64,000 nt of DNA from Styela clava (lineage: Eukaryota): positions 13,392,001-13,456,000 of the forward strand of contig NC_135257.1 in the NCBI RefSeq assembly GCF_964204865.1, written 5' to 3'. Shown here one piece after another: positions 25,552-60,413 of the stretch. A program made the position numbers and the translations under genes. Each line of letters opens with the position of its first letter. Positions within the stretch are counted from its first letter, which is position 1. Below the pieces are notes generated by a model. That model was given only the letters and a program-made list of their open reading frames with translations, was not told the DNA's origin and did no database searches.

Positions 25552-28500
25552 TTAAAAATCCTGTATATAACCATCAAATCCACCATCTCGGATGCTACCT
25601 GTGTCAGAACCAGTATCGTTGAGATACATAAGGTCGTAAGGATTATATTGATATCTTAATGATTTTACAACTCCTTCTGTTTTTGATTCAGCAACTGTTG
25701 ACTTATTTTTTGATTCCTTCGTTTTTGTTGTAGCAGCCTCCTGGCGCAGAATGTCTTGCATTGGTTTCGGTAAGACGGACGCGTAAGGATTCTCAGCCCC
25801 GACACCCATTCCTCTTTCTGCCAGTGAGTCAAGTGCTATAGATGAGCCCTCTCCATCACCAGATTGTCTGATGGACGAAAGAGCGTCAGAGTAGAACTGA
25901 CGAGCTTCTAATAATTTGACTTCAAGAGAATTCAGCTTCTTTGTAATCGCCTGAACAAAAATTGAGAATGATAAAAAATAAAATAGGCTTGATTTCTTTT
26001 TGAAACCAAATTAGCACAAAAGCTGATTTGCATTGAATTTTAATAAAAAAATTTCTTGCGGTAAAAGTAAATTTTTTGTAAAGGTCATTTCCTTTGTACA
26101 AATAAAAAATTTGCAGTTTATACATACATAACCATCAATTCTACTTTTTAGTAAAATAAGTATGAAGCGAAGCAAACATTATCAAATTTTCATTTATTGA
26201 TAGCTGCACCCAAAAACCAGCATTGATTGTGGTCTTAATAAGAGTATTAATCAAATATGAAGACCAAGAAGTTCGTCAATATCAGCTTAGATTGGAACAT
26301 TGTTTACAAGCATGATCAAGTATTGAAATGCAATCACAATACAGTACATGAGTACATGCATATTTGTTTGTCAGTATATTAGAAACAATACCTCAAGTTT
26401 AATTTGAAAATCCTGCTGGACTTCGAAATAAGGTTTTGCCTTGACAATATTTCTCTGTAAAGTAACTTGATATTTGTTTTTATCATCTTCAGCAGCTTTA
26501 AAAATTCCAGCAGCTTTCATGTGAATTCCGTGTATATAATCTTTTTCTCTTGATGCTTCGTTTACCTGAATTACAATTAATTAAAGGTAATGCCTAATCT
26601 AACAGTGGTTCCCAATCTGTATAAAATGGGGATTCATTATTGGATGATAACACCAACCAACCATAACTGCTGAACATCTATCTCCTCCTCGTAACTCATT
26701 TTGGATTTCTCATACCTCCTTATTATTGCTTGCCTATGCAAGGATTTTAACGCTATCGCAAAAATTGTAATCGTGAATAAAATTCTTACAGCTGTCTCAA
26801 TTATTTGAAAATTAGAAATCAGAATCATTTGAAAATTAGAATCAGAAGATTGCGAACAACTGATCTGGGGCTCGCATCCTTTTACACAGGTAAATTAGTG
26901 AGAATAAAAAAATCTTCACGGACTGGTAATGTTTAATGTTAACAGTCAAGTCCTAGTGGATAAAACAGAACAGTATGTATAGTTTTTTGTTCAGAAAAGC
27001 AGGTATATATATTTGAAACAAGTAATTCATATGCCAAACGGATGACTTATTTACTGCATTGTTCCTGATCTGTATATGAAAAAAGTTTGATCAAGAATAT
27101 AAATTTCTAATAAGTCAAGTTCCAACACACAAAGAGTTGGTTAATTGTAAATAATGCAGCAGTGGCTGCTTGTCTAGGGCATTGTTCAGAGCGGAATCAC
27201 CTCAAATTACTTAGATTACTTAAATTCAAATTACCTTTGAAGTTGCTTGGTTCAACATTTCCTGCCACGTTGTATCAAACTTATCCGATGATAAAGACAG
27301 ACGTTCTTCTGCGACTCGAACCATATCTCTTCCTGCTTTCTGAAGGTTAACTGCTCTTTTATACCTAATGGCAGCCTGCTGGGTCTCCATTTGCGCCTGT
27401 CAATACAACAGTATTCAAAAAGGTTATATTTACAAATAAATCTCTTTCTACAAAAATCACAGTTGACAGAGTCCATAGACTCTAAAAAAATTAGGTACGG
27501 CACATCACTACAGGTTTGGTTCATGGTATGCGACTGAATTTCATTTCTTATTATATTAATACGACTTAGGGATGTGGAGTCGGAGTTGAAGTTTGTCATG
27601 TTTCCATTGGATGGAAGACCGGATGGGAAACGCTGAACTTCCTAGAGACGGTAGTAGGAATTTGAGACATTTAATGATGATAATCAATGTCAAAATTTCT
27701 AACAGAAGTTTGAAAAATTAACTTGGCTAGGCGTTTTGTAACCTCTATTAAAAGAATGCTTGGATATGGCAAAGTTTTTTATCGTCAGAACTTCCGTGGG
27801 ATTACAGAACTGGAATCGAGGTCAAAATTTCCCCGGGACCCCCACAGCCTTGACATTACCTATTAATAATAAATTAAATTAACCGCTGAATGACTGGATG
27901 AGGGATGGGATTTCAATCCCCGTATGGCCATACAGCTTCAAGAAAATCTCAAAATGTATCTGTGTATGTATTTGTTTATGATGGAACCCAATCTCACCTT
28001 TCTTGCTTTCATGACTGAATCGAAGTAGGGTCTTGCTCTTTCTACACAATTACCGAGACTTTGTGAAATTTCTTTCAACTTTCGAGAATATTCTGTCATC
28101 ATAGTTCGATATTTTGCTCTTGTTGACTGAAAGTATAATAAAGTGTACTTCAAGACATAAATGATTGAAAATGTATAAATATGAATTTGTAACTTGATGA
28201 GAAATAATAGTGTAAAGAGGAACAGCCATGCAAAGGTCTCAACTTTATGGGAATCACTACTCAGTACTCACTATTTACAGATACTGATCTTGTTATTTTA
28301 CATTGAAATATTTTTTAACAAAATTATAATATCAAACAAATCTCAATAAAATGATATGGTTGTTAGGTTCATATCAAAAACTACACAGGACACGGTGCCT
28401 GTCAGAGTCCACTAGAATCAGTTTATGCACTTTGTGGGAGCAAAGGTGACTTATGAAATTTGTCTTACTTCATGGAATAACCTTTCTTATTCTCTATAGC

Positions 28501-34117: not shown

Positions 34118-37100
34118 ACCAAAGTTACCGTACCCCAGCCCACACTCGCTCAGCCCACACTCAGCCTGACGTCAAGGGGTTAACCAACTATTTTACTGAC
34201 TTTATAAACGTAATTACATAAAAACTTGGTGACTCTGACAATATAGAGACCATATCTGATATACACAACGCAAATACAATACCAAGCACGGCCCAGTTAC
34301 CCCTAGTATGGCCTGACAAAAACGAGTGTGGGCCAGCGTCACACGAGTGTGGGCTACTGGCATCCCACGAGTGTGGGCTAGCGTCACACGAGTGTGGGCT
34401 GACGTTCTGACAATGTTTCACCGTAAGTTAAGGCATCCTAAACGTTCACAGATTACTAAATTACATATATCCATGTTTAACTCAGCGCCAGAACCTCTCA
34501 AAGTCCGGCAATTGATGGCACAAAATAGCCACAATTGCCGGGAAAATGAATCAAAATCAGCTGAACTATGATATCTCTAATCACTGTTGCCAGATATATA
34601 GGTGGACAAGCATGAATTCACAGGAAGGTTTCACAACAAAAAAAATTTATATTTAAGCGAAATATCAAACCTATTCATTTCCATCAATAAGAATGAGGTA
34701 TGAACAAATCGAATCTGATTTGCACAAATACATCTTTTAGAATGAAGATTGAACAAGCAAATTCAAAAGCAAATTAAGTAACATTTACCCAAAGAGATAC
34801 ATTGTCTTGATGGCTTTGAAGTATGATTTCGGCACTTCTAATACTTTGTACGCCATGTAATCGACTTATTACATTATATATCCAATTATACAACAAATAA
34901 CGAAAAATTCAAAAATTCTACCGGGGGGAAAGACTTTGAAAAAAAAAAAATCTACCTATGTATAAAGATAATCCTATTTCCCGACAATGGTATTTTATGA
35001 CAAAATGCAACAAAGAATTGAAACTTTTCTATTAATTTGTACATTATATAGTGAATTATCTTACAAATAGTAAAAAATGAAAAAAAATTTACCGGGGGGG
35101 AAAGACTTTAAAATAAAACCGGAATCTACCTATATCTGACGATAATCATAATTCCCGATAATAGTATTTTATGACAAAATGCAACAAGAAATTGAAATTT
35201 TTCTATTTGTTTGTACATCACGAAATTTGCTTATTATATTATATAATGAATTATCTTACAAATATCGAATATTAAAAAAATTCTACCGGGGGAAAGACTT
35301 TAAAATAAAACCGGAATCTACCTATGTCTAACGATAACGGCACTATGTAATATGATAAGAAATTTTCGTGATGTACAAATTGATAGAAAAGTTTTAATTC
35401 CTTGTTGCATTTTGTCATAAAATACCATTATCGGGAATTATGATCATCGTTGACCGTAGGTAGATTTCGGTTTTATTTTTAAAGTCTTTCCCCGGTAGAA
35501 TTTTTTTTATTTTTTAGTATTTATAACATGAGTCACTATTTTATATAATAGACAAATTTCGTGATGTACAAATTGATAGAAAAGTTTCAATTCCTTGTTG
35601 CATTTTGTCATAAAATACCATTATCGGGAATTATGATTATCGTTAGACATAGGTAGAATCCGGTTTTACTTTAAAGTCTTTCCCCCCGGTAGAATTTTTT
35701 TATTTTTCAGTATTTATAAGACGAGTCACTATTTTATATAATAGGCAAATTTCGTGATGTACAAAAACGATAGAAAAGTTCCAATTCCTTGTTGCATTTT
35801 GTTATAAAATACCATTATCGGGAATTATAATTATCGTTAGACAGAGGTAGATTCCGGTTTTATTTTAAAGTCTTTCCCCCCGGTGGAATTTTTTTTATTT
35901 TTCAGTATTTATAAGATGAGTCACTATTTCATATAATAGGCAAATTTCGTGATGTACAAATTGATAGAAAAGTTTCAATTCCTTGTTGCATTTTGTCATA
36001 AAATACCATTATCGGGAATTATGATTATCGTTAGACATAGGTAGATTCTGGTTTTATTTTAAAGTCTTTCCCCCTGGTATATTTTTTTCAATATTTGATA
36101 TTTGTAAGATAATTCATTATATAATATAATAAGCAAATTTCGTGATGTACAACCTAATAGAAAAGTTTCAATTCCTTGTTGCATTTTGTCATAAAATATC
36201 ATTATCGGGAAATATGATTATCGTTAGACATAGGTAGATTCCGGTATTATTTTGAAGTCTTTCCCCCAGGTAGAATTTTTTTATTTTTTAATATTTGTAA
36301 GATAATTCACTATGTAATATAATAAGCAATTTTCGTAGTGTACAAATTGATATAAAAGTTATAATTTATTGTTGCATTTTGTCATAAAATACCATTATCG
36401 GGAATTATGATCATCGTTAGACATAGGTAGATTCCGGTTTTATTTTTAAAGTCTTTCCCCCAGATAGAATTTTTTTATTTTTCAGTATTTATAAGATGAG
36501 TCACTATTTTATATAATAGGCGAATTTCGTGATGTACAAATTGATAGAAAAGTTTCAATTCCTTGTTGCATTTTGTCATGAAATACCATCATCGGGAATT
36601 ATGATTATCGTTAGACATAGGTAGATTCCGGTTTTATTTTAAAGTCTTTCCCCCCTGTAGAATTTTTTTATTTTTCAGTATTTATAAGATGAGTCACTAT
36701 TTTATATAATAGGCAAATTTCGTGATGTACAAAACGATAGAAAAGTTTCAATTCTTTGTTGCATTTTGTCATAAAATACCATTATCGGGAATTATGATTA
36801 TCGTTAGACATAGGAAGATTCCGGTTTTATTTTAAAGTCTTTCCCCCCGGTAGAATTTTTTCAATATTTGATATTTGTAAGATAATTTACTATATAATAT
36901 AATAAGCAATTTTCGTGATGTACAAATTGATGGAAAAGTTTCAATTCCCTGTTGCATTTTGTCATAAAATACCATTATCGGGAATTATGATTATCGTTAG
37001 ACATAGGTAGATTCCGGTTTTATTTTAAAGTCTTTCCCCCCCCCCCCCCGTAGAATTTTTTTAATATTCGATATTTGTAAGATAATTCATTATATAATAT

Positions 37101-38231
37101 AATAAGCAAATTTCGTACGGTACAAACAAATAGAAAAATTTCAATTTCTTGTTGCATTTTGTCATAAAATACTATTATCGGGAATTATGATTATCGCCAG
37201 ATATAGGTAGATTCCGGTTTTATTTTAAAGTCTTTCCCCCCGGTAAATTTTTTTTTATTTTTCACTATTTGTAAGATAATTCACTATATAATATATTAAG
37301 CAAATTTCGTGATGTACAAATTAATAGAAAAGTTTCAATTCTTTATTGCATTTTGTCATAAAATATCATTGTCGAGAAATAGGATTATCTTTATACATAG
37401 GTAGATTCTTTTTTTTATTCCAAAGTCTTTCCCCCCGGTAGAATTTTTCGTTATTTGTTGGATAATTGGATATATAATGTAATAAGTCGATTTCATGGCG
37501 TACAAAGTATTAGAAGTGCCGAAATCAGACTTCAAAGCCATCAAGACAATGTATCTCTTTGGGTAAATGTTACTTAATTTGCTTTTGAATTTGCTTGTTC
37601 AATCTTTATTTTGAAAGATGTATTTGTGCGAATCAGATTCGATTTGTTCATACCTCATTCTTATTGATGGAAATGAATAGGTTTGATATTTCGCTTAGAT
37701 ATAAATTTTTTTTGTTATGAAACCTTCCTGTGAATTCATGCTTGTCCACCTATATATCTGGCAACAGTGATTAGAGATATCATAGTTCAGCTGATTTTGA
37801 TTCATTTTCCCGGCAATTGTGGCTATTTTGTGCCATCAATTGCCGGACTTTGAGAGGTTCTGGCGCTGAGTTAAACATGGATATATGTAATTTAGTAATC
37901 TGTGAACGTTTAGGATGCCTTAACTTACGGTGAAACATTGTCAGAACGTCAGCCCTTACTCGTGTGACGCTAGCCCACACTCGTGGGATGCCAGCCCACA
38001 CTCGTGTGACGCTAGCCCACACTTGTGTGACGCTGGCCCACACTCGTTTTTGTCAGGCCATACTAGGGGTAACTGGGCCGTGCTTGGTATTGTATTTGCG
38101 TTGTGTATATCAGATATGGTCTCTATATTGTCAGAGTCACCAAGTTTTTATGTAATTACGTTTATAAAGTCAGTAAAATAGTTGGTTAACCCTTTGACGT
38201 CAGGCTGAGTGTGGGCTGGGGTAACTTTGGT
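34118..38231. mobile_element. Foldback/Mutator-like non-autonomous element (4.1 kb, very long TIRs, 9-bp TSD)
   Basis: Ends ACCAAAGTTACC... / ...GGTAACTTTGGT; TSD GGCTGAAGT at 34109-34117 and 38232-38240; ~780-bp unique inverted arms (mirrored ORF pairs 34188/37930 and 34326/37780) containing ~21-bp subrepeats (CACACGAGTGTGGGC...). Confidence 0.9.
34900..37450. repeat. ~194-bp satellite inside the Foldback-like element; orientation flips at ~35340
   Basis: CGTGATGTACAAA recurs at ~35367, 35560, 35753, 35948, 36141 ... 37308 (about 11 units). About 2.5 units lie in the opposite orientation at 34900-35340. Confidence 0.92.
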
Positions 38232-42649: not shown

Positions 42650-43464
42650 TCCTATTACCTGTTTGTGAACGGAAATGACGCGGGCCTCAAACAATGGCGG
42701 AGATCCAACTGGTCGCCTACCAGCTTGTTCTTTAAATTGGTCATACAAAGTGTATTTTCAGTATAATGGAAAAATAAAATACTCTGATTACTGCATCAGT
42801 GCTTTTTACACTTACATGCAAATCTTCTGGTGTGATTCACAAGCTTACCATTTTTTTTTTTTTTGGGCTGGTTACACCCACAACGTTGTATTCCGACAGG
42901 ATTGGCCAATCTGTTATGGCTGACTAGGTGGGTTGGTCGTACAGTTGTGTATGCGACAAGTTCGCAAGTCTCAGTGGAAGTTTTTAACTTTAAAGACGAA
43001 TATCACCAAATGAGTCTAAAAATACGACTGCTGTAGGCTACTTATTTTGATTATCATATCAAACTTGGTAAATTTGGCCGTTGCATTGATGATAAATGGT
43101 CGAGTTACGTGGAAATTACGGCCATTTCATCCAAAGTTATGCACTTCGACGATAGTCACTGTGGGCATTTTTGCTTATTACTGTTTTGTTTCATCATAAA
43201 CTTTGTTTTCGTCCAGATTGACAATGATGATATCATTGGTAAATGCAGCATCTCATGCCGCCTGCATTTTGGTTTTATATATTCTGAGTACGAACGTGCG
43301 TAATCTTGTTTTATCAGGAGATAATCGTTTCGGAGTTCATAGCGTATTTGAGCGTAATCGCGATGGTTCAGCACGACCCATATTGTTATGATTTGATTTC
43401 AGAAAATATATCGTTCGAAAAAGTCGTGGATTACCATTTGTAGGAGTAGCCTTTCAAAGTAAGG

Positions 43465-45489
43465 ATGGTCTTCATCAGCTTGACATCGATCCTGACTATT
43501 TGTTTCGTGTCTACGACAGTCGGTAAGCCACGAATTGAAAATGGAAAAGAAAAGTGCACTTTGCCAATTTTCGACGAGGTCAATTATAACATGGTAAGGT
43601 AATTTAACTGAAGCTGAAATTACAATGTCTCTTCATATACAGTAAATTTCGGATAACTTCATGATTAAGAATGCCATAGCGAGCAAAAAAAAATGTTTTC
43701 GCCAGTTACTACAAGCGTTTATCCGTTCATTGATCATTGAAAAAAAGATTCACGAAAAAATGTTCCATTGATAAAAATAAGAATAAAACCAAAAAATACC
43801 CACAAAGTTTGCTATTGTAGAACGATTCGAATAGAGCAAGAGTAAACAAAGTGAGACCGTTGTATCGTTTTAGCTTCCTCATTCTTGGTATCACATCCTG
43901 AACACAAACGATCCCGTTGAACACCACGTCCCATGTTATGCATTCCTATTCTTCCACGATTCTCACGACGACGATTCCTACGGAGAATTTCAAGATATTT
44001 CCTCGGCAGAAAAGTGAATACATTTTAATTCGTTTTAATGATTATAATTCTATTTTTGACTAAGTTTTTTTGAAACGCCGTACATATTGTTATATATATA
44101 CTGTATTACACATGGAAATGATATTTACCTTGGACTAGTGGTATTTTAACTTAAGAAAGGAAAATAACTCGATACGATATTGGGTTTACGTTATAAAACG
44201 CTTTTCATTGAAAATTAAATTTCAATGAAAAATTCCCTGAATATGATCGCCTCGATTTTCTTCGATTCTCATCGATTTGCGCAAACAACTTAATATTTCA
44301 TTTTGAAAGATGTATCGACGGCTGTTATTCCAAATTCTGTTGTGAAACCAATAAAAAATAAGTGTTTGTCGCAATAGTTTGTGAGCAAAATTACATATAG
44401 TTCAATTGATCCGTCGAACCCAACACCCAACGAAAGTTTGTGCACCCATCAGAATACAATATATATACATTTCAAATATTTTCTTTATGATAATATGCTT
44501 CTCTATTTTTGCAGGGGTGCAATAAGATTTAGTGGGGTAATACCAGTTCATTGGTATCATAACGGAAGCTCTATCATTAGATTTGACGAAAAGTTTGGTT
44601 TGTAAAATTATGATTTATCCAACTGTAATTCTTCGCCGTGAAATATTTCCTTGATAATGATATTTTCTGATCTAGAATACTTGTGGTTGAATGAAGCAAA
44701 AAATAACGGAGCCGGAGATAACGCATTTGCAGGTATACATGACGGTCGACCGTCTTCTCTCGTTGCGTGTATTGTTACGTGCATCAATGTTTGTATTACA
44801 CAAAAACTCCATATTGCTGCGCAACACTGCAAACCTCGGCGGATACTCCTTTGTTACAAAGCTAATGACCTAATATTACTAGGGTGTTTATGAGATGACG
44901 AGGGTATTGGATTAAAATTTTACAAACACGGAACTAAAAATTTTCTTAGAATTTAGTGTCCTCACCTGTTTAGGAGTGTGTGCATTATGTTGTATAGCAA
45001 ACCACTATATTTTCTTTAAAGACGGGGGTGCCACTTAAAAAGATAAGAAATATCACATTCTTTATTCTTCATCAAAGATGCGACTAATTTTCAGATTGAA
45101 TGATGAAAACACATTTTTATATAAAAATTGTGAACCTGCCGTTTTATTATCTTTACAGAAATTAAAAACTTTTACGATCGACCCATGAGTTGTTTTACAG
45201 ATTATGAGCGTTATTTTATGTGCTTGCAATGCAACCACTTAGGTAAGTATCATTTGGTGATATTCCTTGTTTGTTCCACACTTATTCGAATCATTAAGTT
45301 GAATATTTATCTCGCACTGTTTCAGGTAAACGTTACATATGGATCCACAGCCGCAATCCGCATCCCAGCGCACAAGATATTTTACGAGCTCGAAATAAGC
45401 TTGTTGAAATTGGCGACGGCTGGAGCTCAGTTCCACTGCACTTATCCGACTGCCGTAATTTTGACGAACCAGAAAAATTTTCCTATTAA
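43465..45489 (+). CDS. Secreted ApoD-like lipocalin (6 exons, 218 aa)
   Basis: Exons 43465-43593, 43874-44013, 44515-44597, 44676-44732, 45159-45242, 45326-45489 (phases 0,2,1,1,1; 657 nt). Signal peptide MVFISLTSILTICFVSTTVG; KCTLP..VNYNM|LPHSWYHI (SCR1-like), FTDYERYFMCLQC (SCR2 TDY), YIWIHSRNP (SCR3), C-terminal Cys in LSDC. Not recovered by the ORF track. Confidence 0.88.
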
Positions 45490-47349
45490 ATATTATGATG
45501 TACTAATTGATTATGTGAATATAACATTTCTTGCATGATTTCAGAAAATTTGAAAAAAAATGTATGTCAATCTTTTTTGTTGCGAATGTGTTACTTGTGA
45601 GATTATACAATATATATATATTGGGTGTTTTCCGAATCTCAATTTACTTGTTCATTTCGATAACATTGGATAACTCGTGGAAACACGCTCAAAATAGCCA
45701 CCAAAGATCTGACAATGGTGAAATATAGGAACCATTTTCAAGAGTAAGCTTTCGCTCACTTTTGTGAGATTATTTCAACGTTCAAGGCATGCAACACGCA
45801 GCAATAAAGCGCTATGGCCAGTGACGGATTTACTATTAGGTAAGGTGGCCTCGACGGTAAATTTTGACCATTAACTACTAACCTATTATTATGATTAGGT
45901 CGTTTTTATTTTATATAAACGAATTGAATATTATATATACGAATTTATTTTTGTGAAGCTAGCAGAAAATTGCAAAATTTGAGCCGGCAGAATGCGGAAA
46001 ATTTCCCACACATTATTATTAGTTTTGCGATAGTATAATAATAATTAGTAATTACACTAATATTCTTATCAATATTTAATAAACACGCTAAAATGACTAT
46101 AAAAGTGCATAATAAAATCCTATATTTTTATAGGTCAACCATAGAATCAACTCCAGCAATCCTCCTGGCCCGGAGAGTTACCTGCTTAACTAGAAATTTA
46201 TTTTGATTAAGATGTCGGATTATCGGTGAGTCGTTTACTAACAAATCGGAATAGAGTAAATTATTATAGAAGAGACGTACAATTTTTGACTCAGTTCAAA
46301 TACCGCTTTTCGTTAAAACGTCGGTTGAAAATGTTAGCGAGAGCCATTTTTTTGTTTTTCTTACATCATATTGGTTTTTCTTACAGATAGGAGCGGATGC
46401 AATAACAAGACTCCGTTTGAGTCTGTACTCCATTGTAGCGATAAAAAAGAATTTGAACTGGCTAATGCCACTGTGCATTTTTCGACATAAGTTTAGTTTT
46501 GAAGCACTAACGCATGAAAATGAAAGCTAGCCAATCGTGACCTGATTAATTGTGGAAATTCTACGGAAAAGTAATGCACTTACTGTCAATTACTTTATGC
46601 TCAAATAGTTTACGACTATTAGGATAAACAATGAAGCGACCGTAAGGAATAACTATAGGCTACAAGAATGTGACGACATTCACGAAACAAAATATTTACA
46701 GGTAACCCACACAAAATTATACCGGCTACCTGGCGGGGAAGAAGAACATGATAGTTTCGATAGCATTTATGGTAATCAGTTTAAAAATACGTATTTAACT
46801 CGAATAACTTCGATTACACGACAATGGTCGTTCTGATTTCTGCCTGCGGGCGTTATAATTAATGATACTTTCTCCTGATTCCGTGCGTTGCGTTAATGCG
46901 AGCGTTATTCGATGATTCTTGGTCACTTGAGAAACTATCACGTTTCCGATAAGTCGTGATGGGCGTGAAATGATTTTCTTTCGACGAATCCTAATAAATA
47001 GCGACAACTCGTACCATGTTTATCATTTGCATTGAAATGTGCACAATATGTAAATCTATTGAAAAACGAGAGTTGAAAATGAAAATTCGAGTTTTCATCA
47101 CGTAAACTGTTACTACTTCGTGTAAAACATTTTCAACGTATCAGTTAATTGCATTGCTGCCTTCTGATGGACATCGCAAGAAAATCAGGCACACCAATGT
47201 AGTTTGTTTTATAGTTTTATTGATAGATATTCGGAAAATAGACAAGTGTTGTTTCTACTTACCAATTTTAGTGGTGCTACAGATAAAATACAAGTAAAAG
47301 AGAGCCTTTAAATTTAAGTTTTAGATTTTGTAAAAGTACGTTTTTAACT

Positions 47350-50095
47350 ATGAACTATCTAAAACTTTTCATCTTGGTGGCTTTATTTGCGACTATTTCT
47401 GCAAAGAAAGCGAGAAGAAGGAAAAGAATACACATAGAAATTGTATCGGTGAGAAACATTTTGTTTTAATTTAATTTAACATATATATATATATCATATA
47501 GCATAATATTTATGTCTATATATCATTTATGGTTACAGAAAAATTCGACTTCGTTTATTGCTCGTTTTCGACAATACAAGAGGGTCAAGAAATACTTTGT
47601 GAGCATCTCTGAAAAGGTGATAATTTTTCCTGTTCAAACATTTGAACCTACTATTCACATTGCTAGAACAACGAGAATAGTGATAAACAAAATAAGGTGC
47701 TCCTGAAGTATGCGCACCAAGATGTCGCATAACCTGAACCCTAACCTGGTACACAACCTGAGTTCAGGTTGTGCGCCATCTTGGTGCGCATACTTCAGGA
47801 GGTCCCAAAATAAACATTTAATATATATATCATTGCCGTAGCGTATCATCTAATTCGGCGGATATATCGAAAAACTGTGGGTGTTTTGGGGGAAAATGAT
47901 TCAATAAGATGAAATAATAGAGATATTTTTGAACACAGGGATTTTTTTTGAGTAACTGAATAAATCAAGACGTTATTATGTTCGTTACGTTGTTGTAGAT
48001 ATAGCACACGTTTTGTATGAAATGCATTGATTCAGAATATAGCCTATGAATTCCAGTCGATGTGCAGCATCCAAGATAACATGATAAAATTGCTTTACAT
48101 ATAAATAATATACAGTATATATATTTTAGTATCTGGCAGACGCACCCTCTGACTACGTAGTTGACTTAGTGAAATCGGATATGGATGAAGAAGGATATTA
48201 CGAAATCAATGCTGTAAATTCATTGCGACCCGGAATTCTGTATGAATTGGTTATTTTTAACAAGAAAAAGTATTCGAACCTTCGTTCTATGGACTTCTAT
48301 ACTGGTGAGTAAACTGTCAATAACTGTGACCAACTTTTGATTTGAAGCTTGCCATTTGGCCACTGGAATGTCTCAAGCAGAATGATAACATCCTTTGGCT
48401 ATTTGCTGTGATAGTAAATAAGGTATTGCTTACATTCTTTTGCCCTCGTAAAGCATATATATATATAGCTGTTCCACTATTTTTCTGTAAAATATCATTT
48501 CTTCACACAAGTTAGAAAAATGAATTACGATTTTATAATTTTAGACTGCGACGCATATACATTTCAGTGCATGAACGGAAGAGGAAAAAGAGCGTATCAA
48601 ACTTGCCTAGAAAAAACATCTTTGTGTGATGGGACCGCTGATTGTAGAAAAGGAGAAGACGAAGTAACGAATAAAAACGGATCGTGGTAATGACAGACTT
48701 TAATACATTTGCTGACAAGTCACAAGAATCTATAGAAATATATTGTTAATTATATCAATATATAATATAAAATATCAATAATGCAAAATAGTAAAATACT
48801 GTACCACGACCTGGCATTGCATTGCTAGTTTTAGCGGCATACCACAAGGTTAATTGTTTTGACTAGGAACAAGGAATTCATGAAGTGGGGTTAAAAAGGG
48901 TTTGATAAAAATATTACGATGCAATGAAATTTTCATGTTTGATAGAATTTCTCATTTGATTTGCGGTAAATATTTTTCAGTGCCGTCTCTGTGCCTGACA
49001 GACCAACTATTCCGCCTCCATCCCCACCACCGGCTGATGCACCTTGTATATTAGCACTTGAAAAAGCTGTTCGCGAGTCTACTACACCTCTTCCGGGTAT
49101 GTATTACAGTCGCTTCTTCGTGCGCTTGTGCTTCAAATAAACGTTTGTTATAAAATACAAATTTCCATGTACATAGTTTGATTCTGAAATTGGGGATTGA
49201 TAGAATTTGCGACAAATTGTTTAATATTTGACTGTTGTTACAATTTTCATCAAGAAAATAATCTTTTATTATTTCAAAGTTAGTGTTAGTGTTTCATCGA
49301 ATTCCTCATTTCGATACTATTAGAAATACGCTAATTCAAAAAGATTTACAATTATAACTTTCCAGCAGTATTATCATAACTGAATCATTTTCTCAGATTA
49401 TGGACTTATTCATATATCGATATATATATTACATAAGTCAAAAGAAAGATTATTTAAAAAGTAGATTTGAAAAAAATAATTCTCGAAAGCGTGTCTGACT
49501 GCCAGAAACGATAACATCTGCAATATTTAACAACGCAATGTTTACAATATGCATATATCGCGAAAATGTCCGTTCAATAAAAAATGACGTTTTTTGACAG
49601 AATGTGACGAGAAAGGTTTGTTTATTGCCATGAAATGTGGTGAAGACGCATTTACTTGTCACTGCCTTCACCCAGAAACTGGAGAAATACTGGATACACA
49701 AACTTATTTTGAGCCTTTTGTTCATTGGGATTTTTATGACAATTGTCAGAAACGTAAGTGATAATTTTTATCTATTTCGATAAACTAAGTAGGGCCTAGT
49801 GTATTTTGCAAGACATAAATAGTCAATTCTGAAGTCTTTTGGTAATTTTACAGTATTTTTGAATGTTGTTTCACATAATTTAAATATAAGCTTGTGTTTT
49901 CACACATATATATATATATATGACAAGCTGAACCTTGAAAGTATATCTGGAATATATATAATTTGGTATTTCGAGTGATATAGGTCATGTTTCACGCAAG
50001 CGTTTTGGTTATTTATTTTTTCAATTATAATTTTATAAGAAATGTAACTGTTATTTTCAGTGAGAGAAAAAGATCCAAAAGCCAAGACCGCATGA
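47350..50095 (+). CDS. Secreted protein with FN3 + LDL-receptor class A + thyroglobulin type-1 domains (7 exons, 265 aa)
   Basis: Exons 47350-47448, 47539-47616, 48130-48304, 48545-48686, 48981-49096, 49601-49753, 50061-50095 join in frame (798 nt). Signal peptide MNYLKLFILVALFATISA followed by RRRKR; FN3-like NSTSFIARF..YFV...SLRPGILYELVI; LDLa CDAYTFQCMNG..C..LCDGTADCRKGEDE..C; Pro-rich linker; Tg-1 PC...PECDEKGLF..KC..TCHCLHPETGEILDT..C. Confidence 0.85.
47700..47801. mobile_element. ~100-bp hairpin MITE in intron 2
   Basis: CTCCTGAAGTATGCGCACCAAGATG.CGCA.AACCTGAAC / GTTCAGGTTGTGCGCCATCTTGGTGCGCATACTTCAGGAG, ~40-bp near-perfect arms. Absent from the duplicated copy at ~51450. Confidence 0.75.
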
Positions 50096-51049
50096 TTGTG
50101 AGACATCCATGGAGATGATATTTTACGGACATTCATTTTGAATGACCAAATTCGCATTGTTTTATGAAAGAAGCCTGCTGGCAAATGTATCTTATTTGTT
50201 GAACAAGTAAACGTGCATAATAACTCTGCGATATTTGGCTTTTATTCCAATATGACTAAATCTTTTGAGTCTTTTTTAACGTAATACAAGCAATGTGTAA
50301 AATAAATGATTCATTGTTGAAATTGAGGTTGTGTTGTGATTTGAACTGCAGGACATAGACTTTTGAGTTGGGTTTGTACGTTACAGGAAAATATAGAGGA
50401 GTTCAGCAGTTTTTGTTATCAGTGAATCAATGTTTTACGGTCTTTCACATATACGATTATTCCATATACATAAATTATTACAATCCTTATATTCCCGTAG
50501 TTTCTCATCAAGTCTTTATCAGAGCTATTCGCTGACTTTGGGACCTAAATCCACGATTACTTCACTTCCACGAATATTTAAACATTAAAATAAGCAACGA
50601 TTACGACAAGGATTGCAATATATTCACATGACATAAGAAAATAAATCGTTCTTGTCACATGTCTGTTTTTGCGGGGGCGGACAGGATAAGCATTTGAATA
50701 TTGTTTAATTTTCAGCTATTACTACCCCGGGGCATACAAATAACCATTGTAATGAGCGTGATAGTTCTTTACGTCGAAACATGACACTAACAGACAAACT
50801 GATAGTGCTTCAACGCCAACGGTGACTCGTACAGCAAAATACAAACAAACAAATCGAACAACAGTATCAATAATTTGCACTATTTTGTATAAAAAAACAA
50901 AGACAACTTTAATCCTATTAATTTAGTCCAATTAGTTTATTTTGTTGACATTTTCCAGACTTTGCGACAAAAGACATTTGTATTTCATTTGCAGTCGAGT
51001 GAAACACTGGTGTTGACGGTACTCGCCTTATCCGATCTGTGTGTTGTTC

Positions 51050-51720
51050 CTATTTTAGTGGTGATTCTGATTAAATCAATTAAATATATATATAGGCCTA
51101 CAACAGATTTTGTAATGATACGTACTGTCAATTATTCAAAACTTTTCATCTTGGAGGTCTTATTGGAGACTGTTTCTGCGAAGAAACCGATACGAAAAAA
51201 ATACTAAATACGGAAATTGTAACCTGTTTTCCTATATATCCATTAAATTTGTCAATTATTTCTTACATCAACCGATTTATGTTATGTTTGGTTTAGAAAA
51301 ACTATACTTCGTTTGTTGCTCGTTTTCAACAATACAAGAAGGTTGAGACATTCATTTTGAGCACATCTGACAAGGCTACACTTTTTTGTTTGAGCATAGG
51401 AACTTAGTGTTGGCATTTTTAGAACAACGATGATCGTGGCCAACGAAATATAAAATAAATATCACATATATATAGTCACAGTTTACGTATTATATAAATC
51501 GACAAATATGTGCTAATGTTTGGTCATTTTTATTTGATAATGAGCAGTTTTGGAGAAAATGATTCAATGTTACATGAAATAATCAACATTTCAAACATAA
51601 GATTATTTGAATAAAAGGTATGAGACAAACATTGTTTCCAAATCGTATATATTTCGGTTTCCGACAGACGCTTCAGTTTATCTGATCACAGCAGACTCCG
51701 TCAAATCGGTTACATATGTA
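51050..51720 (+). pseudogene. Decayed partial duplicate of the FN3-LDLa-Tg1 gene (exons 1-2 and a trace of exon 3)
   Basis: AAAACTTTTCATCTTGG..GACT.TTTCTGC.AAGAAA (51138) matches exon 1, and ACTTCGTTT.TTGCTCGTTTTC.ACAATACAAGA.GGT (51306) matches exon 2. The ATG and both donor sites are lost. Confidence 0.75.
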
Positions 51721-52474: not shown

Positions 52475-55400
52475 TTATATTTCAGGAGAACATTCTGGAA
52501 CATTTCCAAATAAAGACATGAATAGTTGATTCCTAGCTTCGTGAGTAAAATCTGACTGATCATTTGGTGCCATGAAGCTCTGTAATTTTTGATGTATCTC
52601 ATACCTTTGAAATATCATGTATTATTATCATTTTTTAGGTTCCATGTGTGTGTTAAAACCCGTCAAAAGGTTGCATTAAAATATTAATATTATATTGAAT
52701 TATTATATATTTCATATATTGAAATATTCATATTATGGTCTCATAATCATCTGTATTGCGATTTAGAATACAGAACACTGGAAAAAAGTAAATACTTTTA
52801 TAGTATATCAAGCGAGTCAATTTATTATCAATTAAATTCCACTCCAGAAAACGTTTTCAATGTGTCCCTAGTTTCTAGCAGACTACTCCAAATAAAACTC
52901 TTCAAAACATTGGCATTGGGTCCTCAAATCTCATAATCAAATTGCATAATTCAAGTAATTAATCCAAAAACTGTGATAGATAAATGAGAAGTCAAAAATT
53001 TGAAATAAATACTCAAGTTCATACCTTATTTTTCTTCCTTTACTTGCTTTTGTGTCAACATTTTTCTTTGCTTTACTCCGTAATCTTTGTACTTTTAACC
53101 ATTGCCTTGAAAATTATTTCAAATTGGAATTCATAAAAATCTTTAGTGATCACTTTGACAAGACAATTTACCACCACAACACAAAAATATTTCATTTATT
53201 TTTTATAATTTAGGAAAGCAATATTCATGGTACTTTTAACCATTGCCTTGAAAATTATTTCAAATTGGAATTCAAAAAAAAAATCTTTAGTGATCACTTT
53301 GACAAGACAATTTACCACCACAACACAAAAATATTTTATTTATTTTTAATAATTTAGGAAAGCAATATTCATGAATAGACATTCACTAAAACTATTGAAT
53401 CATTTTCATAAAATTCATCAGATACCTTCAATGCATGATCAAATTTTATGAAAAATAAAAATTAATTTTCAATTCAATTAAATTTTTATATATGATATTG
53501 CTACAAATATGTACAAACCTCGTAAGTTCAACTGGATCTGATGAACCTCCAGGTCCTGATGATTTTTGTTCAATGAGTTGTCGAAGTAACTGGTGATAAA
53601 AGTCATCGTCATCATAGATTTCAGGCAGATATTCTTTTAAATGACTACTGTGGTTGTCGGCATCTTCAACAGGTGTCTATTGATTGAAAACAAAAGCTAA
53701 AGGGCAAAAAGCAACAGTTGACAGGGATGGGTGAAGTCAATAACATAGACCTGATATGAGTAAAGGACTGAAGCTTGGCACACAACTCTGTTCAATTATT
53801 CGTGCCTTCTTTGATCTTAAGGCAACATGATACTAAAATAAATTGTCTTTGAAAAACAAATATATTGTGAATTATATTTATTAGGACTTTCCATTTTTAT
53901 TCCAAGGTAGAAATTCAATAAGACAGCATATCCATGTTGCGAACCAAAAAAGATTAATGCCCAATCACCAGTCCAGATCAGCTTTGGAAATAGCTGAGTT
54001 ACCCGTAATTATTCGAGATTGATGGATACGGATGCTGAAGGAGTCAAGACGTAACCAGCTTAGGAATCCTTTCACACATAACTCCTTATACCAACATCTC
54101 AAACCAAATTCTGGACCAAAAATTTAACATACTAAACCACAATATTTCACAGACCTCTAGTTTATTAGACTGAGTCGTTCCCAGTATACGATAGTTCGTT
54201 CTTTTCAATTGTGTCCGCTTGATTAATCTTTCACGGTCTTGTAATATATCTTCTATCTGAGAAACTGTCGACCGTTCAAAATTTGAGAATGACTGAAATA
54301 TAAAGAGTCATAATTGTTATGAAAGAGGTAAAGTAAAACATTATGATATTCTTAACTCTACAAATATGACGAATACTGATTTACGTATGTATACCTTTGA
54401 TTTTGATGTCGCTGTTAATCTTGTTTTATCATACCACAACTTCAGTACTTTATTCCTATGAGTTTTATATGAAGTAAATCTGTCTTGGATCATATCATTC
54501 ACCTCTTCCATCGACGTTGTACTTTTCCGCTTGTTATTACTATGCATAAAAAATAACAATAAATTTAGAGATGACTACCCACAACATTTCTATTGATGTG
54601 TGTCAGTCAATGGGAACATTACACAAGATATATCTCTTCAATGTGCACTGTGATTTTGTAGTGTCATTCAAGTCCCAAGCATTATAAAATAAATAGAGCA
54701 ATATGATCGCATAATGTTACTGCTGCAACAGCAGATCCAGACGATTAAAATTTCAATATACCAGTGCAAAAACTTCAGATTTTGATGACGATAAACTTGG
54801 AGATACTTCAATAAAATTCATTATTTAATACTATTGAAAAAAACTAACAATTTCACATACTAAAGCTAACGTATCACTGAGATTTAGGTACCATGAATGT
54901 ATTCAATTTAGGGTTTTTGACAATAAACATACCTGATTTTAGAATCTGCTATTGACTGAGTTTCAGGATTTTGAGTGAGAAGTCTCCTTTCTAATTCTAA
55001 CAATTTGTATAAAAGATTAGACAAAATTTTATCCGCAGATGAAAGAGAAGCTGGTAATTCAGTTTTAAATAGTTCCATCTTATCATATTGAGGTAATCTG
55101 TTAGATATTGTAAGTATCTTCTGAAATTTGATTCGAGCTTCAAGCATATTTTCCCACAAACCTAAAAAATATAAAAAAAATTCTCAAAAAAACAAATTGA
55201 ATTTATTCGCAAAGTCAAATAGTCAATATCTGTCTGTTCACATCTATCATTTGTTTATGTTTATCCTCGACAAAGAGCATCGATAACTTTGAACTAACAG
55301 TAAAAAGTGTGCTCTTATACAAAATGTGAGGTAAGCAAACAGAAAAGTTATGGCCCTACTACATTGTGCAGCAAATGAAATTTTAGCGAATATACCGTAG

Positions 55401-58063
55401 ATAAGTATTGTACAATACATTCAGGTATCGTTTTCGTTATATGACGTCTTTCACTTTAAACAAAGCTCTATACAAGTCTCTATTACACCAATATGTAAAC
55501 AGCTGCTTTTTTCTTAAGGACCTCAATCATTCACCTTATTACACCCTGAGTGAGGTGGTGATCATAGGTTCGAACCATGGATCTTTAATGCCAATATAGT
55601 TGAGCCCAAAACTCTAGCCATCATAGGGCTTCGCTCTAATGATATAAGTATGACCAAACAATTACATAATCCAATCAATTTGTCATTCCCATCAAAAATA
55701 TTGTCCAACATTAGATGAATATTAGAATTAACCAGATTGGCAGATAAAACTAACAAATTTTAATTAATAAAAGAAACGTAAGTAATCTCACAAAATTGAT
55801 TTCTAGTAGCTCTCGATTTTAATAATGGATCAGCCTTTTTCCTATTTTGAAATATTTTTAAACTGTCATCGCCATCTCCATCGGCTTCATCAGAATCAAT
55901 TTCTTCATCCATTCCATCATCTTCATCTAGCATAATGTCTCCAACTTCACTATTATAGCTAGTATCACCATTCATTTCTCTGCATTAGTAGTGAAAAACA
56001 TATTCAAATCAAGAATTTGGATACAGGATGTCAATAGATATAGAAAACAACATAATAGAAGTAAAAGAATATACCTCTCAATATCTTCATCAGTTTGATC
56101 ATCTCCACTGTCAATATTTTCATCTTCAGCATTCCCATTCTATAAATAAATTGCAATTATATAAAACACATTCTAAAAAAGACATTTTTCATCACCCAAA
56201 CTTGACAAATGATAAACTTTTGTCCTAGCACATGAATAAATACAGCCAACCTACACTACCAAACTATATTATCAACAATGACACGAGGATAACGATAAAA
56301 TCAGGTAGAGATACTAATAAATAAATAAATGCTTTTTTAGACATAGTGAAGTTCAAGAAATGCAAAATTTTTTCCTTATACTCGGACAGGATCGAAACAG
56401 AGGATGAAAAACAATTATAGCGCAATTTTTATCCTAATTCTTGCTGTGGCTGCACACTTGCACAGACTATCTCGTCTATGATATGCACTAACTGGAAAAT
56501 ATTTTCAGTCAAAAACACCTCGACAGCAAAGATATTTGATATTCTCATAAAGACTAAAAACGATATTTGGAGGTCATGATATTCGAATTACAAAAGAATT
56601 CTACTATCGTACATGATTTTTCTCACTATTCTTGACGATACAGAATAAAACGGAAATGTAATCTAAATACCTTAATGCACTTCATGATAGCAACAATATT
56701 TACCTCCAGTTCAATGTTATCTTCATTGCCAGACTCACTTCCATCACCATCTGATGTTTGATTCCTTGATACAACTTTACCCCTATATAGCTCTCCCATG
56801 CCTTCGAGCGACTGCATTTTTCTTCGGCCAATTCCAGGAACATGTTGAATAACTGTTCCATCTTCAGCATCACTATTCAAATCATCTTTCTCTACAACTT
56901 TAGCTCTGGTTTCTAAACAAAAATTCTACCATGTAAAAATACAACAATTTTCATTAGGTATAGATAGTCGTAATATATCGTTTTACTTAGTTCGTCACTT
57001 CAATCATGGAGTAACATTTCGGTCAGATATGCTAAACCCATAAAGTACAGTCATTTCAAAACTGGGTAGCACATACAGTTATTAGTTTCTGGCATTACTG
57101 CATTATATAAAGTAGAAATGCAAATATCAAACAAAACAGATGATCTATATATATTTTAATTCAAGAAATTCAAGAACAAGGAGTCTATGATCAAGGATAC
57201 AATTTTTCTAAACCAAAAAAATCTTCAAAACAAAATTGAAAGCCTTTTAGGGAGAAGTTTCAATCTCCGAATAATTGAAATGTGACAGTGATTCAGTAGT
57301 TGAAGAGAAAACAATTCAATTTATACCAACCACAATATTCACAAACAATGTTTGAGTAATAATAATAATACTGGGTCACTGGTTACAGCAGGGGTGCACA
57401 ACCTTTTCTCGTTTGACGGGGGCATTACATTTTTGTAAAGCTGACTTTTTCAACGAGTGGCGTCATCGCGATCAGGTTTCGAACAATAACTTCTTTACAT
57501 AAACGCCAAAAAAATCTAATTTCATCTGGAATTAAAGAACCGTTTCTCTGTTAACGATATCCCGCTTTAGAGATATGAAAGAATATTCAGAGCTGTTACT
57601 TTTTTATAATACTGATAATTTATTTCCATTACAGACACAAGTAATGATATGATTTTTCGTAACACTCAAGCGCCAACATAAAACATAAATTATTTTTCAG
57701 TAACACACCAGCACAGCTGCACATTTTACCTGCGAAAGCCGCATGCGGCCGTACGGCTGCAGGTTGTGCCCCCCTGGGTTATAGCGTTCAGTCAAAGAAT
57801 ATTATGAGTATGTAGGTACCCAGCAACTCAGTAGCAAGCCAAAAAACACCCCTAAATGGTCAGGTCTATTTAAGTCTTTAGGTGCCATAGCACAACCACA
57901 ACTGTAGAAGTGCATCACAGTTTTAGCAAAAAAATGTGCATAAAGTGAACAGTAATGCATTGAGTGTTATATCACAAGTACCTTCATAAATATCATCTTC
58001 TGGGTCAATGCTCTTCACACTCGGATCGAAAAGCCTAGCAAGTTGTTCAGCTAAAGATGTCAT
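52475..58063 (-). CDS. AATF: Apoptosis-antagonizing transcription factor (Che-1/Bfr2), 10 exons
   Basis: Exons approximately 58063-57982, 56912-56704, 56140-56075, 55979-55791, 55161-54934, 54538-54395, 54293-54155, 53676-53518, 53107-53024, 52604-52475. Peptides [96 protein letters not shown]. Confidence 0.93.
53090..53373. repeat. ~140-bp direct tandem duplication spanning an AATF 3' splice site
   Basis: TACTTTTAACCATTGCCTTGAAAATT...GCAATATTCATG at 53090-53229 and 53231-53373. Confidence 0.9.
57389..57776. mobile_element. hAT-type MITE in AATF intron 1
   Basis: TIRs CAGGGGTGCACAACCT / AGGTTGTGCCCCCCTG; TSD GGTTACAG / GGTTATAG (7 of 8 match, central TA). Confidence 0.8.
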
Positions 58064-58736: not shown

Positions 58737-60323
58737 TTAATATTTCTTATAATTCGAATCTCCACCCTTTCGCTTTTCAATAATTTGATTGATTTGCATC
58801 AGTTCGCGATTCAATTTTTGTTTTTCATTCTGCTCCTTGGTTCGTCTTGTTTTTCGACCTCCTGTCATTTTTATTCCATACTGGAAGGCAGCTTTAGGCA
58901 TTGCTTCTTTCTGAGACATGTAATTACTATATTCTTCTTGAGTATCAAAGTCCCATCTTCCAACTGGACCTTTCTTACTACCTTGATCCATTTTACTGTA
59001 ATCTGCTTCATCATCACTATCGTCTCCTACGCCTGATAAATTGTATTGCGCTGATGGATAGCATTCCATGTAACTGTCAGATGCCCCCGCTGTGCCAATG
59101 AGTGGATTGCCTTTGCCAGACTCTTTCTTTTGCTTTTTAGTTTCTTTGGTTTGGTCTGGTTGTGACGACCCTGCATATTTTTCATTGACATTTTTTACAA
59201 AATTTTTCACTGAAGCAGCAACAGCTTGTTTTGATTCAACCATTTCTTCTTCCATTTTAGGTTTCTCAAAATAAGAATGAGCATTTTTTGCAGGCTTGCT
59301 TCTGTTCTTTTTTAGAGTAGGAACATATTCACCAATATCATCAAATATGCCCATGTCTGCTTCAATGGGTCTTTTATGTGGCCTATCATTTTCAGTCTTT
59401 ATCTTTCTATCTTTCTTCTTTCTATGCTTTTCGCGAGCACCTTGACGTAAATATGACAATATCTGAGTCAGTTTATTAATAACAATATCGTTAGTTGATA
59501 ATGTTGTTTGAGACTCGAGTGTTGGGCAGTCTGCTTTACTACGAAGCAGAGTAGTGGGAATATCTGTGTCTGCAAACTCATCATCGACTTGAAAAACGTA
59601 CGCCATTCGTCCCGGCAAAAACAATTCATTTCTTAGTTTCATTTGAGGCTGGAAGACAAGTCTGTGTATGTTTTTTGCCATTTTTGTTTTGAACGTAACC
59701 ACTTCTTTCTGTTGCTGCTGTTGTTCTTCTTTCGTGTTTTCTATGTCTTCAGATAAAACTTTATCAAGTTCTTCGTCCTCTCGTTCTTTTGTCGATATCT
59801 CAGCTCGAACCTTTTGTAAAAGAGCGAAATCGAGACCTTTTACCAAGTGAGTATGAGCCATGTCACCTCCAAGATATTTTGATTCTTGGATGACTTGTCT
59901 TCTTTTCTCAGCGGAAGTTCGGTCCGCTTCAGCACTTGGGCCAACGGTTTTGTAATTAGCAGTTGTATTGATAAGATCAGATTCAGCATAATCTCCTTTA
60001 CCTTCTCTCCTCTCTTTTGCTCGATCTCTATATTTCTTTTGAAGTTCAGCCTGCCTTTCCATTTCTTGCTTTTTAAGTTTTGCATACAAACTTTTCTTTT
60101 TTCTTCTTTTTTCAGCAGCCGATTCATGATCTTCTGAATCAAATTCTGATTGGGACGCTGAGACTCGTTTTGCTCGATCATCGTGAGTTTTTTCACCACC
60201 AGCTTTAGGGGTCGTCAAAAATTTTCGAAAGTCTGCATTGGTTAGAGGTTGTTCATTAACATTGCCATCAGTCTCATGATAATGCTCAGGGGGCAGAGGA
60301 TTAGAAAATTCTTCATTTGCCAT
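58737..60323 (-). CDS. IK: Protein RED (IK), spliceosomal B-complex factor; single coding exon, 528 aa
   Basis: RED_N motifs LTNADFRKFL.TP, KYRDRAKERR, IQESKYLGGDMAHTHLVKGLDFALLQKVR, RNELFLPGRMAY, DIPTTLLRSKADCP; RED_C motifs SYMECYP, DYSKMDQG.KKGP.GRWDFDT.EEYS.YM..KEAMPKAAFQYGIKM. Confidence 0.97.
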   Translation of the reverse strand: MANEEFSNPLPPEHYHETDGNVNEQPLTNADFRKFLTTPKAGGEKTHDDRAKRVSASQSEFDSEDHESAAEKRRKKKSLYAKLKKQEMERQAELQKKYRDRAKERREGKGDYAESDLINTTANYKTVGPSAEADRTSAEKRRQVIQESKYLGGDMAHTHLVKGLDFALLQKVRAEISTKEREDEELDKVLSEDIENTKEEQQQQQKEVVTFKTKMAKNIHRLVFQPQMKLRNELFLPGRMAYVFQVDDEFADTDIPTTLLRSKADCPTLESQTTLSTNDIVINKLTQILSYLRQGAREKHRKKKDRKIKTENDRPHKRPIEADMGIFDDIGEYVPTLKKNRSKPAKNAHSYFEKPKMEEEMVESKQAVAASVKNFVKNVNEKYAGSSQPDQTKETKKQKKESGKGNPLIGTAGASDSYMECYPSAQYNLSGVGDDSDDEADYSKMDQGSKKGPVGRWDFDTQEEYSNYMSQKEAMPKAAFQYGIKMTGGRKTRRTKEQNEKQKLNRELMQINQIIEKRKGGDSNYKKY

Positions 60324-60413
60324 AATGCTTTATTGATAAAATTAGTTCAACAGTATTTATAAAATATAAAAAAAAAAATGAATGGCTGAGTATTGAACTG
60401 TCACTGACATAAC

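Follow-up and report, generated by a model that had tools for sequence, protein, structure and literature searches.

Nidogen, SMOC and testican, all of which bear thyroglobulin type 1 (Tg1) modules, sit in basement membranes. The module also occurs in the thyropins of MEROPS family I31 (the p41 fragment, equistatin, saxiphilin and the salmon egg inhibitor), at the C-terminus of the IGFBPs, and in vertebrate thyroglobulin and ScTG-like (Sc.CG.S284.31), while LDLa and FN3 modules are joined in one chain in SorLA/SORL1 and the LDL-receptor family. Here we report a gene of the ascidian Styela clava whose product carries one predicted FN3, one LDLa and one Tg1 module. It lies in a 64,000-nucleotide stretch of AT-rich animal DNA (NCBI RefSeq assembly GCF_964204865.1, contig NC_135257.1, positions 13,392,001 to 13,456,000 of the forward strand), hereafter the window, at window positions 47350-50095 (+). 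With moderate confidence, we propose that this product is a small non-catalytic secreted accessory (adaptor) protein of the extracellular matrix or basement membrane.

The gene consists of seven exons holding 265 codons plus a stop (Table 1). Its six introns are all GT-AG and 90-513 bases long, the frame is open throughout, and the translation is identical to the RefSeq protein XP_039271470.2 (LOC120345934, “uncharacterized protein”). The introns were bridged by contigs of runs X1-X5, which are available as contigs only, are presumed to be RNA from a program's guess and whose depth gives no expression level or stage: X1 and X3 each bridge all six, X2 bridges five and X5 a single one. At the 5' end, contig cover begins at 46942 and continues through the ATG, shortly before which an in-frame stop occurs; at the 3' end, it extends from exon 6 to 50500. 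Since the untranslated regions (UTRs) are covered at both ends, the gene is not a piece of a longer receptor. Taken together, the bridged introns, the UTRs, the upstream stop and the lack of any later hydrophobic stretch demonstrate that these exons make up a single complete gene, whose product is of a soluble, secreted type. The objection that they might belong to different transcripts, or to a fragment of a longer SorLA/LRP-type receptor, is thereby contradicted; such an artefact would fit the fact that no one contig spans the full transcript and that FN3 and LDLa co-occur in SorLA-type proteins, but we consider it extremely improbable, given that the six junctions are bridged, that the RefSeq model is identical, that two paralogues have the same exons and that three single-open-reading-frame relatives have the same layout.

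Apart from its N-terminus, the protein shows no hydrophobic 19-residue stretch above 1.0 (the maximum past residue 20 is 0.81), hence no transmembrane segment. The signal peptide (about residues 1-18) was called by eye and from hydropathy, with cleavage predicted after Ala18. It is followed by RRRKR at residues 22-26. An R-x-K/R-R motif arose within residues 16-31 in 0.7% of 20,000 shuffles, so that chance occurrence there is unlikely, and the FN3 fold starts at residue 27, immediately after the basic tract. Residues 23-26 thus match the furin/proprotein-convertase motif at a domain border, and trimming at this site is predicted. No FN3 match was obtained with Pfam in the 265-residue protein, and a weak Pur_ac_phosph_N match (E 0.041) appeared in paralogue P0020; fn3 clusters of the ESM Atlas resemble this part at 0.85-0.88. 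An AlphaFold2 model built with six family members reached a mean pLDDT (predicted local distance difference test) of 71.5, with mostly 75-88 in the FN3 part and 49-58 in the LDLa region; an earlier model from three near-identical sequences had been poor (44.5). In the better model, seven strands within residues 29-116 form a predicted FN3 sandwich, and residues 27-119 align with fibronectin type III domains (Z 12.0, root mean square deviation 2.0, 84 residues aligned). Nearly all of the best 44 Foldseek rows were FN3 as well, these fold searches covering essentially residues 25-122 rather than LDLa or Tg1. We therefore predict a cysteine-free FN3 module from the model. The two other modules passed their Pfam cut-offs narrowly: LDLa (residues 118-165) with 25.6 bits against 24.1, and Tg1 type 1A (residues 185-253; Cys187, 205, 216, 223, 225 and 252) with 22.2 bits against 20.6. 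They are separated by a Pro-rich linker (about residues 166-184), and the Tg1 core reads CHCL (residues 223-226). Neither Pfam nor hydropathy revealed a catalytic or membrane domain in the 265 residues. All these features, together with the basic insert in LDLa, are as claimed in the preliminary description of this DNA, made from the letters alone.

The Styela clava genome contains three such genes, with all six introns in common: the window gene, a close paralogue on C3 (LOC120342534, 83% identical) and, more remote, LOC120327509 on C8 (25% identical), which has a tail of repeats and keeps the introns at identical positions and phases (0,0,1,2,1,1). A search of 1.84 billion representatives returned 25 matches. 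Five of them span all three modules, namely the gene itself, the C8 paralogue and three unnamed Logan proteins 40-46% identical; three are fragments apparently reading through the same introns as the gene; and 17 match short stretches, ten of which were scanned and proved to be Tg1-repeat, LDLa-repeat or low-complexity proteins. Searching FN3 exon 3 against longer proteins recovered the product of the gene itself only (one of seven candidates), searching the whole protein recovered three of 450 candidates, all from S. clava, and a six-sequence profile found six of 7,777 entries, four from the family and two LDLa-repeat proteins. No named member outside Styela was thus found in protein and profile searches of limited reach, and the ESM Atlas gave no usable match for the full-length family sequence P0006. 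In the accessible part of PMC9953650 (Table S3), BLASTP pairs the paralogues with Ciona KY.Chr13.300 and KY.Chr4.23, which may be single-domain matches; a text search found no paper on either. A further candidate locus, at C8:19.69 Mb, was ruled out as an unrelated LDLa gene.

By comparing six full-length members for alignment, charge and motif counts, we found that the 12 cysteines of LDLa and Tg1 (six each) are invariant in all of them. The ratio of replacement to silent substitution rates (dN/dS) between the gene and its close paralogue is 0.32 (Fisher p=3.6e-7), which indicates purifying selection, and the six-protein tree resolves the C9+C3 pair only (100/100). Judging from these sequences, this is a small, old and constrained family. 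The Tg1 module is acidic in all six members (net charge -6 to -10). The LDLa residues D146, D150, D156 and E157, which we take to be the Ca2+-holding positions, are all present in the window protein; three of the six members have all four of them and the other three have three, so that a Ca2+-stabilised LDLa is predicted. In canonical LDL-receptor repeats, a Trp before C-D stacks on a ligand lysine. The corresponding column holds S, S, Y, Q, Q and K, that is Trp in none of the six members, which argues against canonical LDL-receptor ligand capture. On the other hand, a strict furin motif is found in two members only (RKKR in the close paralogue), two others having basic tracts and two none; and the basic LDLa insert belongs to a loop that varies in length and charge and differs in four of the six; its internal RGKR is absent from the close paralogue. 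From the alignment, neither the furin site nor the basic insert is a family trait, and the furin site appears optional.

The preliminary description had proposed a lineage-specific product of exon shuffling, which stands in part. In favour of shuffling, phase-1 introns lie at the FN3/LDLa border and just after Tg1, but there is none before FN3 or at the LDLa/Tg1 border. Taken as confined to one species, “lineage-specific” would be too narrow, given the 25% identical paralogue with its six conserved introns and the relatives at 40-46%.

How does this protein compare with the described systems? Like nidogen/entactin, SMOC and testican, it is of secreted type, non-catalytic, modular and Tg1-bearing, and its paralogue shares a cell cluster with Nid1 and Lama5; unlike them, it is far smaller, has FN3 and LDLa instead, and shows no NIDO, G2F, EGF, YWTD, Kazal/follistatin or EF-hand domain in Pfam. 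It has in common with the thyropins the six-cysteine Tg1, but differs by CHCL, by an acidic hairpin of variable length, by a longer C5-C6 segment with an aromatic motif and by FN3 and LDLa. SorLA and the LDL-receptor family also combine LDLa and FN3, and among named Atlas clusters one of SORL fragments comes closest to the FN3 part (0.88, a lead only); the window protein has instead one FN3 before one LDLa, without membrane segment, VPS10, YWTD or the ligand-contact Trp. ScTG-like, like vertebrate thyroglobulin, has Tg1 in common with it, yet is the product of a different gene, with many Tg1 modules and 630 kDa against one and 30 kDa. By analogy, the protein would work most in the manner of the Tg1-bearing matrix proteins, yet it belongs to none of the nidogen, SMOC/testican, IGFBP, SorLA and thyroglobulin families. 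Invertebrate secretomes commonly contain new combinations of these three mobile modules. For the FN3-LDLa-Tg1 layout, we found no description in accession and architecture literature searches, beyond whose reach lay most subscription papers and two sources that might show it, namely the Tg1 superfamily survey of Novinec et al. 2006 and, in PMC12992692, Supplementary Fig. 1. It is apparently an undescribed arrangement of known modules, in agreement with the preliminary description, which had recognised it from no named protein.

The IGFBPs deserve a separate comparison, since they too are small and secreted and carry one Tg1 at the C-terminus, behind a flexible linker. The best single-sequence match of the window protein in PDB was the C-domain of IGFBP2 with its preceding Pro-rich stretch (E 0.034), and the paralogue's cell cluster is VEGFR-positive; both would suit a growth-factor or hormone carrier, or a soluble receptor decoy. 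However, FN3-LDLa replaces the IGFBP N-terminal domain, and the match is neither significant nor more than generic to Tg1, which makes such a role improbable.

The accessible parts of published S. clava studies give clues to where the family is expressed. In endostyle single-cell RNA sequencing (PMC10980280), the C3 paralogue, whose identifier in the marker tables was confirmed by sequence in the supplement of PMC9953650, is a specific marker of cluster 5 (56.9% of its cells, against 3.0% of those elsewhere) and also marks integrated cluster 13. The authors labelled cluster 5 “Vascular endothelial cell”, and its 11 selected markers are Vgfr1, Lama5, Nid1, Coch, Chad, Mfgm, Angl2, Ecel1, Itih3, Vco31 and Thrb, a matrix-secreting profile that also includes plasma-protein genes. 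The favoured role as a matrix adaptor, one of the options of the preliminary description, would then work as follows. First, the protein would be exported via its predicted signal peptide, with optional removal of the 8-residue basic extension by a convertase, so that the mature chain would start at FN3. Second, a rigid, Ca2+-stabilised FN3-LDLa unit and an acidic Tg1 unit would be held apart by the Pro-rich spacer. Third, each unit would bind a different matrix partner, thereby bridging or decorating them, and the variable Tg1 hairpin would tune the choice of partner. This bridging role is suggested because Tg1-bearing proteins such as nidogen, SMOC and testican are known to reside in basement membranes. 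The paralogue in cluster 5, the invariant cysteines, the lack of a catalytic or membrane domain, the acidic Tg1 with its non-p41-like hairpin and the missing LDLa Trp together lead us to give this role about an even chance.

Several observations weigh against it. First, in the accessible tables the window gene itself (Sc.CG.S60.17) has no row among the endostyle marker-table entries searched (PMC10980280), so that the inference on the cell of origin relies on the 83%-identical paralogue, and it is one of the two Tg1 proteins, out of 12, missing from the list obtained from endostyle by immunoprecipitation and mass spectrometry (PMC12992692). Second, cluster 5 also expresses the complement-C3-like Vco31, a thrombin-like gene and Itih3 (PMC10980280), and a haemolymph protein therefore fits equally well. 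Third, the net charge of FN3 ranges from -5 to +10 across members, hence no conserved polyanion-binding face is evident. Fourth, the matrix partners are those that we infer by analogy. Fifth, the clustering of allelic change in the Tg1 loops, described below, suits a contested recognition surface better than a structural linker.

The accessible supplement of PMC12992692 lists Sc.CG.S60.17 as one of 12 S. clava Tg1 proteins; the searchable text of the paper and of six supplements gives it no function or domain layout and makes no mention of “LDL”, “FN3” or “fibronectin”, Supplementary Fig. 1, which may draw the domains, being an image outside the text search. Ten of the 12, both paralogues included, were recovered from endostyle with an anti-bovine thyroglobulin antibody, which, with 14 Tyr in the chain (one in an acidic context, residues 77-84), could suggest an iodoprotein or thyroid-hormone precursor of the endostyle. 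We hold this to be very improbable: in addition to the absence of the window gene from that list, the identification score of the close paralogue was low (6.1) and the hormone precursor demonstrated there is the different 630-kDa multi-Tg1 protein (PMC12992692), while the three marker rows found in the accessible tables fall in clusters 5 (the “vascular” one) and 13, and none in thyroid-like cluster 18 (PMC10980280).

We then compared the Tg1 module with the thyropins, as the preliminary description had suggested a cathepsin inhibitor. Inhibitory thyropins have a Gly and an aromatic residue before P-x-C in the first loop; neither is present here. Exon 6 aligns ungapped to p41, its top PDB sequence match, with equal spacing from C2 to beyond C5, but weakly (E 0.15). 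According to the accessible text of PMC7863939, p41 binds cathepsin L via three loops, the core signature of the module is CWCV, and few Tg1 proteins are confirmed inhibitors, with no such activity demonstrated for nidogen or the IGFBPs. CWCV is replaced in all six family members (CHCL, CYCL, CHCI, CHCI, CHCM and CECV). Also, the C3-C4 hairpin of the three sequences compared, p41 and both saxiphilin repeats, has the pattern x-G/A-S-T/I-G-Y, which is found in none of the six members; their hairpins are acidic or polar, 6-7 residues long and closer to thyroglobulin repeat 1. By sequence, then, this Tg1 departs from the thyropins in these two respects, which lowers the case for protease inhibition and weakens the cathepsin proposal. 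A thyropin-type inhibitor, with a Tg1 wedge blocking a cysteine (or other) protease, FN3-LDLa anchoring it in the matrix and variable loops tuning specificity, is a possible but unlikely alternative. It is consistent with the six-cysteine fold and the p41 match, with the position of the allelic changes (see below) and with the many papain-family exons in the genome (40 among the matches listed; an intact single-frame Styela papain-family protease was not found in the two loci checked). Against it stand the hairpin, the replaced core and the first loop, and the fact that dN/dS between the close paralogues in exon 6 (0.33) is the same as in the rest of the gene (0.31).

The allelic changes came from an earlier RefSeq version of the gene (P0039), which differs at 10 residues. 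Seven of them fall in exon 6, which encodes 51 of the 265 residues (p=5e-4): the C3-C4 hairpin carries an indel and two changes, residues 238-241 carry three and residue 249 one. Six of these seven map, in the alignment, to the hairpin of p41 or to the segment after it, which we take to be p41 loops II and III. P0039-type changes were present at about 1:1 with the genome form in X1 and X4, in a mixed form in X3 and absent from X2, while the main contigs showed no difference over exons 3-4 (X2-X4) or over exon 3 and most of exon 4 (X1). Given that the genome has two loci only for exon 6, the two forms fit alleles, with a collapsed duplicate as a possible alternative; their introns differ by about 5%. 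At five of the six sites substituted in exon 6, the two alleles differ from each other and both differ from the paralogue (binomial p=0.003). These tests are post hoc and on one gene, and isolated variants can be hidden in contig tables.

Such a pattern might point to a haemolymph or immune recognition protein, that is a soluble factor of sinus-lining cells whose polymorphic Tg1 binds foreign or allelically variable ligands (microbial proteases, complement-like components or non-self cells). The three-way differences, the coexistence of both exon 6 forms beside nearly invariant exons 3-4 and the C3-like gene co-expressed in the paralogue's cluster are in line with this rather unlikely explanation. 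However, allelic replacements in exon 6 (at least five, about seven in all) against two silent changes are no excess over neutrality for 126 and 27 sites; between the paralogues, dN/dS in exon 6 equals that in the rest of the gene, and positive selection was not demonstrated there; the C3 paralogue is identical in this exon in its two versions; and, since the alleles differ by about 5% in their introns, the pattern can also be explained by relaxed surface loops. It is compatible with tolerant loops and with diversifying selection alike. A more speculative version, which we regard as distinctly unlikely, is that in this undescribed family the Tg1 “wedge” became a diversifying recognition surface, by which a matrix-tethered protein would trap rapidly evolving foreign proteases or discriminate self from non-self. 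Just as doubtful is its corollary that old recombining alleles, differing mainly in protease-contact loops, would be maintained in a chordate without adaptive immunity. If clustered Tg1-loop changes did reflect balancing selection, the protein would offer a small, easily expressed model of a thyroglobulin module turning into a variable recognition surface.

Whatever its role, the gene brings to the Tg1 superfamily a compact and apparently undescribed set of domains, in the group that is sister to the vertebrates. It also unites, as one family with a predicted FN3 missed by Pfam, three entries that were anonymous in the published list of S. clava Tg1 proteins. In addition, the C3 paralogue is a ready marker of the VEGFR-, laminin- and nidogen-positive sinus-lining ascidian cells, relevant to the origin of the vertebrate endothelium.

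Table 1. Features of the FN3-LDLa-Tg1 gene and its immediate surroundings, in window coordinates (aa, amino-acid residues of the protein).
Feature	Position	Strand	Remarks
5' UTR (at least this long)	46942..47349	+	X1 contig 46942-47447, continuing over introns 1-3; in-frame stop before ATG
Exon 1: predicted signal peptide aa 1-18, basic tract KKARRRKR aa 19-26, first FN3 strand	47350..47448	+	
R-x-K/R-R furin-type motif, aa 23-26, ending where the FN3 fold begins	47416..47427	+	Sequence; structural alignments start at residue 27
Exon 2: FN3 strands B-C	47539..47616	+	
Inverted repeat like a miniature inverted-repeat transposable element (MITE) in intron 2, outside the protein	47700..47801	.	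40-nt arms, 95% complementary
Exon 3: FN3 strands C'-G; phase-1 intron at FN3/LDLa border	48130..48304	+	
Exon 4: LDLa module; Cys119, 126, 138, 145, 151; acidic D146, D150, D156, E157	48545..48686	+	Pfam PF00057
Exon 4 insert GRGKRAYQT (aa 129-137)	48577-48603	+	Sequence; Ser143 at the usual Trp site of exon 4 LDLa
Exon 5: last LDLa Cys165, Pro-rich linker, Tg1 helix and first loop	48981..49096	+	
Exon 6: Tg1 core, Cys205, 216, 223, 225, 252, CHCL, family-typical aromatic tail PFVHWDF	49601..49753	+	Pfam PF00086; ungapped alignment to p41 (1ICF chain I)
Polymorphic stretch: allelic changes aa 216-220 (C3-C4 hairpin), 238-241, 249	49636..49737	+	
Exon 7 coding part: short charged tail and stop	50061..50095	+	
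3' UTR (at least this long)	50096..50500	+	X2 contig joins 49600-49753 to 50061-50500
Decayed tandem copy of exons 1-2	51105..51450	+	69% DNA identity, no in-frame start, stop after basic tract; about 1 kb past the stop codon

Hundreds of unrelated contigs fall on the MITE-like element of intron 2, which must therefore be abundant in transcripts or in the genome; no counterpart was found in the intron of the C3 paralogue. That paralogue has in its intron 5 an insert of about 1.6 kb (L004 ~1435-3080) with apparently inverted ends, probably a DNA transposon, which is absent from the window gene. Just behind the C3 paralogue lies a decayed copy of the LDLa exon (L004 4214-4350, G000:C3 ~12,830,200) with 80% DNA identity to window positions 48611-48731; both loci have thus shed partial tandem copies. 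In the older RefSeq version of the C3 paralogue (XP_039267342.1), which published tables use, the frame is shifted at residues 164-182, across the last LDLa Cys and the Pro-rich linker, probably through an assembly or model error. The tail of the C8 paralogue (LOC120327509, G000:C8:13105588-13108094) is made of repeats of about 12 residues and differs by 24 residues in length between two RefSeq versions.

Upstream lies a gene (about 43400-45540, +) that carries a TDY motif at 45197. Its family has many copies: 43 matches were counted, many of them crowded together at G000:C1:6.86-6.95 Mb. It is probably the neighbouring “lipocalin” of the preliminary description, which called any link to it speculative, but its lipocalin identity was not confirmed: an exon-by-exon genome search with PF00061 gave no match, Pfam found nothing for five open reading frames at 43.0-45.5 kb, and a lipocalin motif scan gave six weak matches, one of them the TDY at 45197. 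Moreover, the segment common to the window and the C3 paralogue locus begins at about 46.46 kb and excludes this gene; the link finds no support. Contig cover at 44.0-46.9 kb is nearly nil in four runs, which carries no weight alone.

Elsewhere in the window, we noticed AATF/Che-1 exons at about 52900-57000 (-), a RED/IK gene at 58740-60329 (-) whose coding region is one open frame of 530 residues, and an SH3BP5-like gene at 25555-28267 (-). At about 34150-38220 and 20370-21190 there are a long tandem array of units of about 193 bases, with an inverted counterpart, and a short-period minisatellite that yields spurious open frames.

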